Shown piece after piece: positions 5,360 to 7,794 of a stretch of DNA of 18,146 nt (the stretch's first letter is position 1; each line of letters opens with the position of its first letter). The notes beneath the pieces were generated by a model. It saw only the letters and a list, made by a program, of their open reading frames with translations, did not search any database and was not told the origin of the DNA. This DNA comes from a virus. Its lineage: Duplodnaviria > Heunggongvirae > Uroviricota > Caudoviricetes. The DNA lies in IMG/VR virus record IMGVR_UViG_2534682222_000018, positions 1 to 18,146 of that record, one strand, 5' to 3'. A program made the translations under genes and the position numbers.

Positions 5360-5655
5360 GCTGACACCCTCCCGTAAAACGCCAGTACACGCTGCATCGC
5401 CGGGCTGTTCCGGCACTCCTGAAATATTCCGTTGGTGCAGCTGCGTGCGGTACCGGCCTGCTCTTCCTGCGTGGCCAGGCGATAAGTCACCGTTCGCCAG
5501 ACCTTGCTCACCCGGACAATCTTGCGGGCCCGCTCCAGATCGATAGCGTTCTTCGTGATGCAGTTGATGGTCATGCCGCACTCTGTGGCCACATCCTTCG
5601 CGGTAAAGGTCCTGTGCGTTTCGAGATAACGCAGAATTGCCTGTTTGCCTTTCAT
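5356..5655 (-). CDS. ren: Ren-like protein
   Basis: 99 aa (MKGKQAILRYLETH...). ATG 5655 overlaps the P stop (ATGA), as ren follows P in lambda. Resembles the recalled lambda Ren pattern (VWRTV.YR.AT.EE, ECR.S.AM.RVL). Confidence 0.45.
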   Translation of the reverse strand: MKGKQAILRYLETHRTFTAKDVATECGMTINCITKNAIDLERARKIVRVSKVWRTVTYRLATQEEQAGTARSCTNGIFQECRNSPAMQRVLAFYGRVSA

Positions 5656-6431
5656 TGGATAAGCCCTCTCTCTTTCCCGCGCTGATACTCTTCCCAAAGC
5701 CATTGGGCCGGGGTTAGAGCTCCGAGAGTCGCTGCGTTTGGCATGCACCCGAAGCTTTTTCCTTCCGGGTGATAACCGGCCTGACGGCTCACGTGATTTG
5801 TCGGGATCACTTCATCAGAATTCTCGAGCGCCAGGACGGGGGATGGTATTTTTTCCCCACCAGCAACTTTCAGCGCCCATTCCTCAAGTTTTTTTGACGC
5901 GTATTTTTCAGTTTCAGCCTCGCTCAGCTGGCGCTGGTACATCGCTCTGCGCGTATCGGTCACAATCCAGTACATGACGTCATGAGACCACGGGAAAGCT
6001 TCTGCTCCGCCGGTATGCAGCCCTTTTTCGCGGCTATACCGATGGAACTCATTCATCACATCAGCCAGGCCAATGCCAAGTACCGTGCCGCTATCCTTGC
6101 ACCATTTGATGAATTGCCCCGGAGAAGGCCAGAAGGGTGATTCACTGGCGCGGGCATGCCGTACACCTGCGGAAAGTTGTTCGCGGGTGCGGATCCCATT
6201 CTCTGAAAACGCTGCGATCCACTGACGCTTTGCCGTTTTCTCGTCTGCGTCAGTTTTCAGGTTTGTCTGCGTAGACGCAGGGAAAATCTGCTTCAGCTGC
6301 CGAAATAGAGAATCAACAAGCCCCTCAGCCTCAGGGTTGATAACCTTCTGCTGGTCGGTACTTCCGTTCGCCATTCTGGAAAGTAGCGCACCATCACGGC
6401 CGTTAACGGCTTGCATAATCTGATTATTCAC
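5652..6431 (-). CDS. P: Replication protein P-like (DnaB helicase loader)
   Basis: RQWIAAFSENGIRTREQLSAGVRHARASESPFWPSPGQFIKWC matches recalled lambda P (RRQWVLAFRENGITTMEQVNAGMRVARRQNRPFLPSPGQFVAWC). Start taken at GTG 6431 (SD GGGAGGA, 6-nt spacer, GTGA overlap with the O stop). The track ATG at 6446 has no usable spacer. Confidence 0.75.
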   Translation of the reverse strand: MNNQIMQAVNGRDGALLSRMANGSTDQQKVINPEAEGLVDSLFRQLKQIFPASTQTNLKTDADEKTAKRQWIAAFSENGIRTREQLSAGVRHARASESPFWPSPGQFIKWCKDSGTVLGIGLADVMNEFHRYSREKGLHTGGAEAFPWSHDVMYWIVTDTRRAMYQRQLSEAETEKYASKKLEEWALKVAGGEKIPSPVLALENSDEVIPTNHVSRQAGYHPEGKSFGCMPNAATLGALTPAQWLWEEYQRGKERGLIQ

Positions 6432-7162
6432 AGGAAGTCCTCCCATCCCTCGCGGCTGTTCCAGTGAGGCGTTTCCTGCTCGGCACGACCACGCTTAGCC
6501 AGCGGGTTAACCCTGGCATTCCGGATCCAGACTCTGAAAGCCGAATTCCAGTCGATTAGCTGCGTGCCACGGGAAAGGTGATAGTCCCGGAAGTTCAGCA
6601 GCTCAGTTTCAATGCTCACCCCCTTCTCGGCAGCCATAGCAATGTGATCTGCCGACGGCTTAAACAGGGGCGGGAATGGAATCTCCCCGTTTGGTGAAAT
6701 CCCGATCCGCCGCTTAGCGGCTTCGCTCATAAAACCATCGCGCCCAGAGAGAGAGTTAGGTTCAGTGACTGGTTCAAAAGAGTGACTGGTTCTGGTGCCA
6801 TCTGGTGGCACAGGGGGTGTGCAATCAGATGGCATAGGGTGTGCTTCTTCGTGGCATACCCCTGTGCAATTTAATGGCATAGGGGTGGCATCTAATTTCA
6901 GGTAATACACATTTGACGTGTTACCTTTTCCGTTGTTGACGCCAACACGGTTCTCACGCCTGATAAGCCCCATTTCTTCAAGCGCATCAATATGGTTACG
7001 AACAGCCGTTCTGCTGCATTCGCATTGGTCGGCGATATGTTGATACGAAGGCCAGCATTCGCCTTTATCGTTGGCGTTATCGGCCAACTTAATCAGGACG
7101 AGCTTACGCAGTGAGTTTCCCACTTTGACCCCCATTGCTTTCGCCATAAGTGACATGCTCAC
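6428..7162 (-). CDS. O: Replication initiator, O-like (N-terminal winged-HTH, Pro-rich linker)
   Basis: 244-aa ORF directly upstream of and coupled to P. N-terminal HTH region (LKLVLIKLADNANDKGECWPSYQHIADQCECSRTAVRNHIDALEEMGLI). Iteron-like repeats lie inside the gene. Start is GTG 7162 (RBS GGAGG, 6-nt spacer) or ATG 7156. Confidence 0.6.
   Translation of the reverse strand: MSMSLMAKAMGVKVGNSLRKLVLIKLADNANDKGECWPSYQHIADQCECSRTAVRNHIDALEEMGLIRRENRVGVNNGKGNTSNVYYLKLDATPMPLNCTGVCHEEAHPMPSDCTPPVPPDGTRTSHSFEPVTEPNSLSGRDGFMSEAAKRRIGISPNGEIPFPPLFKPSADHIAMAAEKGVSIETELLNFRDYHLSRGTQLIDWNSAFRVWIRNARVNPLAKRGRAEQETPHWNSREGWEDFL
6764..6893. repeat. Iteron-like repeat cluster inside the O gene (putative ori)
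   Basis: 12-bp direct repeat AGTGACTGGTTC at 6764-6775 and 6781-6792. Four or more TGGCA(C/T)A(G/C)GGG-type units at 6807, 6831, 6853 and 6876 (period 22-24 bp), followed by an A/T-rich stretch. Confidence 0.5.
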
Positions 7163-7286
7163 GTGCTACCTCCGGTTTGTTTACTCTCTTCGATTTACCT
7201 GGCATAATTGCCTCGCAATTGACTGACGTTTATTGCACCTGAAAGCCGTTGGTGTTAGCGCACCGCGGCTTTCGCCCTTTCTGCGT

Positions 7287-7508
7287 TCATGCTTCAAAAT
7301 CTCCCTTCACTCCATCCCTGTTCGAAATCAGGATGGCCAGCAGCAGCGACATGTTCGGTACCAGGTTTTCCCGCCACCGGCTGACTGTGGATTTGTTGAT
7401 GCCAGCTACTTCGGCTATCCGGGCGGTACCCAGATCAGCGATTTGACGCTGCACCCAGCTCTCAATTCGTCGTGCCTCCGCTTTGTTGCGTGTCGTTAAG
7501 GTCTCCAT
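7287..7508 (-). CDS. cII: CII-like transcriptional activator
   Basis: 73 aa. RNKAEARRIESWVQRQIADLGTARIAEVAGINKSTVSRWRENLVPNMSLLLAILI aligns with recalled lambda CII. ATG 7508 with RBS GAGGAA. Located just downstream of cro. Confidence 0.7.
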   Translation of the reverse strand: METLTTRNKAEARRIESWVQRQIADLGTARIAEVAGINKSTVSRWRENLVPNMSLLLAILISNRDGVKGDFEA

Positions 7509-7548: not shown

Positions 7549-7794
7549 TCAGGCGGCATGTGAATCTTGTTTAATTCGGTCAGGGTTAGCTGCTTGACGG
7601 AGCCATTCAGCCGTAAACTGCCCATTTGATGCGTCAGCCAAAAGCTGCGAATAGTTGGTTTTCTCTGTGTACTCAGTACGAGGCAGCGCCGCGTTCTTCA
7701 CCCACTTGTGAATAGCAACGTTCGATAGGCCACACAGGCGAGCAGCAGCGGTTTGACCGCCTACAGCTTCGATTGCAAATTGCATTGGGTTCAT
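7549..7794 (-). CDS. cro: Cro-like HTH regulator (Cro/YdaS type)
   Basis: 81 aa with HTH GQTAAARLCGLSNVAIHKW. Transcribed divergently from the cI-like gene across an operator-rich 84-bp spacer. Confidence 0.6.
   Translation of the reverse strand: MNPMQFAIEAVGGQTAAARLCGLSNVAIHKWVKNAALPRTEYTEKTNYSQLLADASNGQFTAEWLRQAANPDRIKQDSHAA

Follow-up and report, generated by a model that had tools for sequence, protein, structure and literature searches.

The 18,146-nucleotide IMG/VR virus record IMGVR_UViG_2534682222_000018, analyzed here as a whole and called the window, is a lambdoid (Rac-like) Escherichia coli prophage, as judged by its gene content and by Pfam and PHROG profile matches. Comparison of its O-like replication initiator gene with related genes suggests that positions 6759–6891 are probably the replication origin of this prophage, located inside the linker-coding part of its own initiator gene. 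Two elements carry this reading: four dyad repeats, the sequence of which changes together with the recognition helix of the encoded protein, and an adjoining 37-bp block that is nearly invariant across the family. Although the kind of origin is known, namely an iteron origin inside an initiator gene, this one is set apart by its initiator family, by its invariant 37-bp element and by the lack of an A/T-rich tract.

The initial annotation had singled out a 12-bp direct repeat followed by TGGCA(C/T)A(G/C)GGG-type units at a 22–24 bp period in the Pro-rich linker-coding part of the gene. The 12-mer AGTGACTGGTTC does occur twice without mismatch (6764–6775 and 6781–6792, 17 bp start to start), and the opposite-strand 11-mer GAACCAGTCAC has two exact matches and a third, with one mismatch, elsewhere (0.23 expected); a count of three was reached in none of 200 shuffles. 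Four TGGCA(C/T)A units, found by motif scan, start at 6806, 6830, 6852 and 6875 (spacing 24, 22 and 23 bp) and lie within 80 bp, a cluster of which 300 first-order Markov simulations of the window never produced as many as three members. The (G/C)GGG tail is present in three of them but is replaced by CCCC in the third unit. A better description of these units is as imperfect palindromes of 19 bp, TRTGCCA-N5-TGGCAYA, four of which span 6794–6881, with half-sites recurring about every 11 bp. All elements fall, as proposed, in codons 91–135, between the winged helix and the C-terminal domain, where 10 of 45 residues are Pro and the AlphaFold2 pLDDT is ~30. The initiator gene, its parts and the elements within it are as follows.

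6428–7162, minus strand: O-like replication initiator gene, 244 amino acids, GTG start, GGAGG 7 nt upstream
6893–7162, minus strand: coding region for the N-terminal winged-helix domain, amino acids 1–90, AlphaFold2 pLDDT 70–88
6974–7015, minus strand: recognition-helix codons, amino acids 50–63, SRTAVRNHIDALEE; the hypervariable specificity positions of the family are 49, 51–53, 55 and 56
6888–6929, minus strand: flank of higher A/T content, encoding the wing GKGNTSNVYYLKL and unlikely to be a cis element
6886–6891: extra half-site TGGCAT, upstream of iteron 1
6863–6881: iteron 1 (promoter-proximal), gene strand TATGCCATTAAATTGCACA, one mismatch to TRTGCCA-N5-TGGCAYA
6840–6858: iteron 2, gene strand TATGCCACGAAGAAGCACA, two mismatches, with TATGCCA in a different frame (GTA TGC CAC)
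6818–6836: iteron 3, gene strand TATGCCATCTGATTGCACA, one mismatch
6794–6812: iteron 4, gene strand TGTGCCACCAGATGGCACC, one mismatch, the best palindrome, abutting the 37-bp block
6759–6795: 37-bp block CCAGAACCAGTCACTCTTTTGAACCAGTCAnnGAACC, on the gene strand (minus) CCAGAACCAGTCACTCTTTTGAACCAGTCACTGAACC, with three GAACC repeats
6428–6757, minus strand: coding region for the C-terminal module, amino acids 136–244, which moves as a unit with the P-like partner

No promoter or terminator was found within the iteron array. The iteron region folds as a single strand (z = −5.2 against shuffled sequences, DNA parameters) only because it is palindromic. A TGGCATA at 7200 was considered as an extra iteron or operator and rejected, as it belongs to a −10-like hexamer.

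Relatives came from DNA similarity searches, a protein pattern search of IMG/VR, tblastn searches of phage and plasmid records, exact matches to the 12-bp-repeat region (IMG/VR and species-representative genomes) and annotated records. The resulting ~275 related genes share one layout, consisting of a conserved N-domain, 3–8 dyad repeats, an invariant block and a variable C-terminal module; dyad spacing is 21–25 bp, and linker length varies with the number of repeats. The window fits this layout, with N-domain, dyads, the block CCAGAACCAGTCA...GAACCAGTCA and a variable C-terminus. More broadly, the phrog_1032/HTH_36-type family comprises 4559 protein clusters at E ≤ 1e-10 and 250 phage records.

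Across the 275 genes, the start of the recognition helix and the half-site adjoining the block correspond almost one-to-one.

Helix CS[KR][ST]AV[RK]: half-sites TGCC / GGCA (the window's class, 115 genes)
Helix ISKRSVM: half-sites GTGCA / TTCAC
Helix IGRSTVK: half-sites GGGCA / TGCCC
Helix IDRSTVR: half-sites TGTAGGC / GCCTACA
Helix ISKRSVMR: half-sites GTGAC / GTCAC
Helix M[ST]R.TAI: half-sites GTGTAA / TTACAC

In 38 non-redundant N-domains, residues 49, 51–53, 55 and 56 are each occupied by 5–9 different amino acids, while helices 1–2 and the intervening loop are invariant. The iteron consensus of the window's class, derived from 100 units of 23 non-redundant genes, is TRTGCCR-YCARA-WRGCAYM, in which the spacer is also conserved though it was absent from the search pattern.

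A natural exchange bears on the same point. The prophage of E. coli EC09 (L307) is 93–100% identical to the window from 6428 to ~6787 (100% up to 6697); identity then drops to ~47% at 6788–6795 and is ~20–50% beyond ~6787, where EC09 carries a different N-domain (ISKRSVMSHI) and the matching GTGCA/TTCAC iterons. This swap indicates that repeats and N-domain are inherited together, and another relative, L089, shows the same mosaic pattern. The P gene region of EC09 is nearly identical to that of the window, and the swap is recent, with the crossover inside or at the edge of the 37-bp block.

Could the repeats be only a by-product of a Pro-rich peptide linker, arising by slippage or by selection on the protein, with no role in cis? 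They do encode PMP/PVP/DGT-like peptide repeats in a linker predicted to be disordered. However, TATGCCA is read CCT-ATG-CCA in three units and GTA-TGC-CAC in the fourth, and GAACCAGTCA encodes R-T-S-H at one occurrence and E-P-V at the other. In relatives L077, L078 and L080–82, the final iteron and the block's first half lie in another frame with their DNA unchanged, giving the peptide CATRWHQNQS rather than PVPPDGTRTSH. Since the same DNA motifs thus yield unrelated peptides in two or three frames, and since the codon data described below agree, the repeats are best understood as DNA signals and not as peptide repeats. The peptide explanation, which is already contradicted by these frames, also has to contend with the covariation between repeats and recognition helix and with the frozen synonymous sites of the block, and we regard it as the most improbable of the explanations considered here. 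Instead, the helix covariation, the joint inheritance and the use of more than one reading frame support the view that the dyads behave as initiator-binding iterons within the linker-coding part, as in lambda.

The 12-bp direct repeat exists as first described, but it is more than a simple repeat: both copies lie within, and form the core of, a 37-bp DNA element that is nearly invariant family-wide. Among 27 non-redundant relatives, which were chosen by protein similarity only and share <93% of nucleotides in the N-domain, the stretch from −2 to +34 reads CCAGAACCAGTCACTCTTTTGAACCAGTCA(A/C)(T/A)GAACC almost without exception, and the window agrees with the consensus at all 37 positions except two variable ones. 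Whereas pairwise identity of synonymous codons is 0.44 at 37 conserved-residue columns of the N-domain, it is 1.0 for 10 of the 11 block codons GGC ACC AGA ACC AGT CAC TCT TTT GAA CCA GTC (0.83 for CCA), which points to selection at the DNA level. An exact copy of the block is found in at least 120 IMG/VR contigs and, with one exception, lies inside a family gene wherever the contig permits the check. The exception is L147 (IMGVR_UViG_2880183892_000004), where the block is in an ORF with no N-domain upstream and may belong to a frameshifted or truncated initiator gene. The block also occurs exactly in 87 species genomes, 85 of which carry it in family genes with a gene G+C content of 0.39–0.63; hosts include Pseudomonas, Xenorhabdus, Photorhabdus, Shewanella, Marinomonas, Microbulbifer, Haemophilus, Providencia, Proteus, Enterobacter, Erwinia, Pantoea, Photobacterium and others. 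The two other matches, in a Pirellulaceae metagenome-assembled genome (MAG; L267) and a Pyrinomonadaceae MAG (L295), look like chance matches, as they have unrelated spacers and lack an initiator gene.

Across relatives the block always abuts the last iteron, and it remains the same across iteron classes, helicase partners and hosts. In 47 non-redundant members, it is a local A/T maximum (0.55–0.63) that follows G+C-rich iterons (A/T 0.33–0.45). No single-strand structure was detected in the block relative to shuffled sequences (z = +1.3 and +0.7, DNA parameters). Its internal repeats number one to four, with a spacing of 12, 14 or 17 bp, and this variation in number and spacing with the motif kept points to a motif that is recognized. 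More distant members retain GAACC-type repeats at this place, with some drift in sequence, and truly A/T-rich tracts come after them: Pseudomonas phage MD8 has four (A)GAACC repeats at 11–14 bp, Aggregatibacter phage S1249 has ATAACCTGTCACTCTTCTGAACCAGTCAATAAACC, then an A-rich tract, with the block variant ATAACCTGTCAC, and a Morganella phage has AGAATCAGTCATGATCCAGTCATAGATCC, then an A/T-rich tract, with a GATCC variant.

These properties make the block a candidate for the origin core, that is, the site at which DNA would be opened or the helicase loaded. A broader proposal, which we advance only tentatively and hold with less than even confidence, is that the block is a universal origin core of a large family of gammaproteobacterial prophage initiators: a sequence-specific element for unwinding and loading that is not A/T-rich. 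The invariant alpha1-loop-alpha2 face of the N-domain would engage it, probably in single-stranded form, while the hypervariable recognition helix would read the phage-specific iterons. That this invariant face holds the block as a single strand is speculation.

A different explanation for the invariance is that the block is a recombination joint, used to exchange the N-terminal (specificity) and C-terminal (helicase-partner) modules, and has no role in initiation. Megablast matches break exactly at the block (query 329–371), and the fall in identity in EC09 and the mosaic in L089 occur there as well, so a function as a joint probably explains the shuffling of specificity and partner modules. 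However, recombination uses identity and does not by itself remove mutations. With synonymous sites saturated elsewhere, it leaves unexplained why 11 consecutive codons, including the rare AGA, are frozen across hosts of 39–63% GC, or why the motif is kept while repeat number and spacing vary. As a joint and an initiation site can coexist, we consider the joint-only explanation unlikely. It is also conceivable that the block acts as RNA, through a pause at the rare AGA between domains, as a target for a small RNA or RNase, or through mRNA structure. The block is transcribed within the mRNA, and its invariant AGA codon lies at the domain boundary. Yet in several relatives the block is in the other frame, where AGA is not a codon, and the block has no Rfam match and no secondary structure beyond that of shuffled sequences (DNA parameters), making an RNA role highly improbable. 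The only RNA family match obtained, to the Fluoride riboswitch at 6672–6722, was rejected; it lies outside the feature and scores 14.8 bits against a cut-off of 34 (E = 0.93).

The initial annotation had placed the A/T-rich stretch of the origin beyond the repeats at ~6888–6930, which would make this stretch the unwinding region and the 12-bp repeats accessory. An A/T-richer stretch is present there: G+C content is 0.375–0.40 in 6880–6939, and 6888–6929, which borders the array, is the least stable duplex near the iterons. The effect is modest, with nearest-neighbor stability at the 95th–97th percentile of low stability in the window, which is not extreme. Moreover, the flank encodes the conserved wing KGNTSNVYYL. 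As the synonymous sites of this segment vary freely (codon identity 0.2–0.6) and relatives have anything from 0.44 to 0.69 A/T there, with the window at the extreme, the flank does not qualify as a conserved element of the origin. Relative to the iterons it is promoter-proximal, opposite to the arrangement in lambda, and the A/T-rich tracts of distant relatives are on the block side. Unwinding at the flank is therefore an alternative to which we give little weight. The proposed likeness to lambda holds for the placement of iterons in the linker-coding part and fails for the A/T flank.

If 6759–6891 is the origin, initiation could proceed as follows. Dimers of the N-terminal winged helix would bind the four 19-bp dyads, about two helical turns apart, to form an O-some-like complex. 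The iteron nearest the 3′ end of the gene abuts the 37-bp element with its three GAACC(AGTCA) repeats, which is the same whatever the iteron specificity; this element would be the place of duplex opening and helicase delivery, and a conserved face of the N-domain may keep it single-stranded. The exchangeable C-terminal domain would recruit the helicase, by way of the lambda-P-like loader and host DnaB in the window and by way of a phage DnaB-like helicase or a primase-helicase in relatives. Sequence comparison shows the anatomy, the selection on the DNA itself, the covariation of iterons with the recognition helix and the inheritance in modules, whereas initiator binding, unwinding at the block and origin activity are what we infer.

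Another possibility is that the dyads are initiator sites for autoregulation, copy control or incompatibility, acting by roadblock or handcuffing, and that the true origin is elsewhere. Iterons in plasmids have control functions as well (PMC5397158), and binding within its own gene could block transcription of that gene. Against this, the 18-kb window contains no other repeat cluster, and dyad matches elsewhere in it are at chance level, with three mismatches. Lambdoid origins proven by experiment likewise lie within the initiator gene and immediately precede the loader gene (PMC7466680). A purely regulatory role would leave the invariant neighboring block unexplained, and we think it rather improbable.

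Several observations weigh against placing the origin here with the block as its core. The block is only 55–63% A/T, far from a classical DNA unwinding element (DUE), and the least stable duplex near the iterons is the flank and not the block. No DnaA box or other host-factor site was recognized; a by-eye comparison of the block with consensus sequences for the DnaA box, IHF, Fis and the oriC 13-mer gave no convincing match. Since the block coincides with a recombination joint, part of its uniformity could reflect exchange. In addition, iterons 1 and 3 of the window (6863–6869 and 6818–6824) read TTGCACA, compared with TGGCACA in the closest relatives (L005–L011). These G-to-T changes, which are Gly to Cys in the protein, shift two of the four iterons away from the palindrome, and this prophage's copy of the origin may therefore be weakened. 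Our literature search found no experiment on any member of the initiator family.

The closest mechanistic precedents are ori-lambda, the Stx-phage origins and iteron plasmids. Lambda and Stx phages have their origins within the O gene, with four ~19-bp dyad iterons in lambda and six in Stx phages, bound by dimers of the N-terminal domain (PMC7466680). As in ori-lambda and the O-P replicons of Stx phages (933W, P27), the repeats of the window lie within the initiator gene, in the part encoding the interdomain linker. As in ori-lambda, there are four ~19-bp dyads, spaced by 22–24 bp or about two helical turns; a P-type loader gene is located just downstream, in the gene order cI-cro-cII-O-P; and iterons and N-domain form a specificity unit that changes together, as seen in the 275 genes and in EC09. 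Unlike lambda, the window encodes an HTH_36 N-domain instead of Phage_rep_O, its iteron sequence is unrelated, and its C-terminal domain is weakly DnaT-like. It also lacks the strongly A/T-rich, promoter-distal tract of ~40 bp, in place of which there is the 37-bp block (55–63% A/T).

The resemblance to iteron plasmids concerns the block. Plasmid Rep proteins bind repeated DUE sequences beside the iterons as single strands; in RK2 (TrfA/oriV) and F (RepE/ori2), these are repeated 13-mers, the exact sequence of which is required, and in the "loop-back" model an initiator molecule holds one specific single strand of the repeats (PMC4081077, PMC10602881). A winged-helix initiator, predicted iteron binding and GAACC(AGTCA) repeats that abut the last iteron would fit the loop-back logic. 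However, the window's initiator has no Rep_3/WH1-WH2 homology, its candidate origin is in a coding region, and its repeats are not A/T-rich. The pHW126-like plasmids (pIGMS31, pIGRK) have a winged-helix Rep, four iteron-like repeats of ~20 bp and, in an origin that is intergenic, a "conserved region" common to the whole family, and their Rep is reported to nick DNA (bioRxiv 10.1101/2022.12.05.519187). The window likewise combines a winged helix, four iterons and a conserved element, a likeness of layout; its candidate origin is intragenic, and nothing in the window suggests nicking.

An analogy can also be drawn with bacterial oriC, the basal unwinding system of which, as reportedly described by Richardson and colleagues in 2016, consists of DnaA boxes and adjacent DnaA-trios. 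DnaA-trios are a short-period motif that specifies where the initiator engages single-stranded DNA. Both systems place a double-strand site directly beside a short-period repeat motif in fixed juxtaposition. They differ in that DnaA is an AAA+ protein and the window's initiator a small winged helix, and in that the repeat unit is 3 nt in oriC and 11–12 bp in the window.

The initiator consists of an N-terminal winged helix, a disordered linker and a C-terminal domain that is weakly DnaT-like. Three complete E. coli chromosomes have the initiator gene at 100% identity, and strains ABWA45, 730V1 and KCJ3K291 carry this sequence unchanged. It matches phrog_1032 "replication initiation protein" with E = 1.2e-60 across amino acids 1–242. 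As had been anticipated, its N-terminal helix-turn-helix (HTH) domain is not that of lambda O: residues 20–67 match Pfam HTH_36 (E = 3.7e-14, 52.7 bits, cut-off 25), other matches are to generic HTH families, and there is no match to Pfam Phage_rep_O, the lambda O N-domain. In the AlphaFold2 model, helices span residues 5–11, 17–29, 40–47 and 51–63, a beta hairpin spans 67–88, and the linker (residues 99–146, pLDDT ~30) is predicted to be disordered. There is no Pfam match to Rep_3 (iteron-plasmid Rep, WH1-WH2), and the model has a single winged helix. A PDB fold search with the N-domain returned generic winged-helix proteins (E > 0.005), among them a plasmid RepA N-domain as a weak match (E > 0.01); such generic matches carry no information on kinship, and a PDB sequence search gave nothing significant. 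DnaT (PF17948) matches residues 167–219 only, with 20.1 bits (E = 5e-4), below the cut-off of 25, and the name "primosomal protein I" (DnaT) used in several phage records overstates the case.

Helicase partners differ across the family. The initiator gene is followed by a lambda-P-like gene in the window, Klebsiella phages, E. coli MDK9L1 and EC09, and Aggregatibacter phage S1249; a DnaB-like helicase is the downstream partner in Vibrio and Stenotrophomonas phages, and a primase-helicase in Salmonella phage S107 and Stx phage phi24B. No recognized loader or helicase gene was found beside the initiator gene in SfV, ST64B and mEp460. The "O" genes of Stx phages phi24B and Min27, SfV orf39, ST64B sb42, mEp460 and the "primosomal protein I" genes of Klebsiella prophages are true homologs of the window's gene with the same architecture, although they differ from it in iteron class and helicase partner. 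The "O" gene of phi24B (L211, HM208303) has, at 2780–2895, three perfect GGGGCAGGAGCTGCCC iterons at 21 bp, followed by CCAGAACCTATCACTCTTTTGAACCAGTCAATGAACC; its "P" is a gp4-like primase-helicase, and the Min27 "O" gene is also in the window's initiator family. The phi24B record annotates operators and promoters but no origin, and an origin at this place is likewise absent from the annotation of the other homolog records fetched. More distant HTH_36 initiators with 36–40% identity are found in phiP27 (L17; L216) and SfII_41 (L217), where the linker has TCAGAWTCTGA palindromes every 12–15 bp, encoding (D/E)PSKS repeats, and no separate invariant block. Family members also occur on Arsenophonus nasoniae plasmid records (H129–H138, 28–104 kb) and on others, mostly of 38–54 kb. 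The presence of the family on many phage-size, non-mobilizable circular "plasmids" suggests that the module also maintains extrachromosomal prophages (phage-plasmids).

The order of genes in the window, cI / cro / cII / O-like / P-like, is that of lambda. The neighboring genes are listed below.

5652–6446, minus strand: lambda-P-like helicase loader gene (Pfam Phage_lambda_P, E = 4e-58; phrog_109, E = 1e-77)
7287–7508, minus strand: cII-like gene (Pfam Phage_CII, E = 1e-12)
7549–7794, minus strand: cro-like gene, YdaS/cro-type HTH
7879–8655, plus strand: cI-like S24 repressor gene, divergent from the cro-like and cII-like genes
11923–16436, plus strand: recE/recT-like genes
16953–18146: integrase gene

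The P-like gene is directly downstream of the initiator gene, with a 19-nt overlap. Since the cII-like and cro-like genes are upstream and in the same direction, transcription of the rightward-promoter type would cross the candidate origin. An oop-like antisense unit (7180–7285, plus strand) lies between the initiator gene and cII and ends beside the stop codon of cII (7287); it consists of a sigma-70-like promoter, TTTACT-17-CATAAT plus extended TG (7180–7208), and a strong hairpin, GAAAGCCG...CGGCTTTC (~7240–7274; RNA fold z = −3.0), followed by a U-rich tail. Just past cI are a YafO-type toxin gene (9347–9766, plus strand; Pfam E = 3e-16) and its 5′ neighbor, an ORF without a family match (8772–9356), which may be toxin-antitoxin or defense cargo. 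The recE/recT-like segment encodes a very long RecE-like exonuclease VIII (1129 amino acids) and a 372-amino-acid RecT homolog, as in the Rac prophage.

We found no description of an origin for this family in the literature, where coverage of subscription journals was poor (e.g., Weigel and Seitz, 2006) and an earlier prediction is possible. A search with the block sequence as a text string returned unrelated papers only, and the literature found on Stx-phage replication concerns lambda-type or Eru-type modules only.

This common initiator family includes medically relevant Shiga-toxin phages (phi24B, Min27 and several Stx2a/2c phages) as well as Klebsiella, Salmonella and Pseudomonas prophages. 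The comparison yields a recognition code relating helix residues to half-sites, a set of natural specificity swaps and a 37-bp candidate for the origin core that does not depend on how the helicase is loaded. Should the block prove to be the opening or loading site, a phage origin can use a conserved, sequence-specific element in place of an A/T-rich tract, and the block would be a simple marker for origins in thousands of prophages. If it is a universal core, it would be the phage counterpart of the DnaA-box/DnaA-trio or RepE loop-back arrangement and would account for the ability of a single initiator scaffold to function with P-type loaders, with DnaB-like helicases, with primase-helicases or without a dedicated partner.

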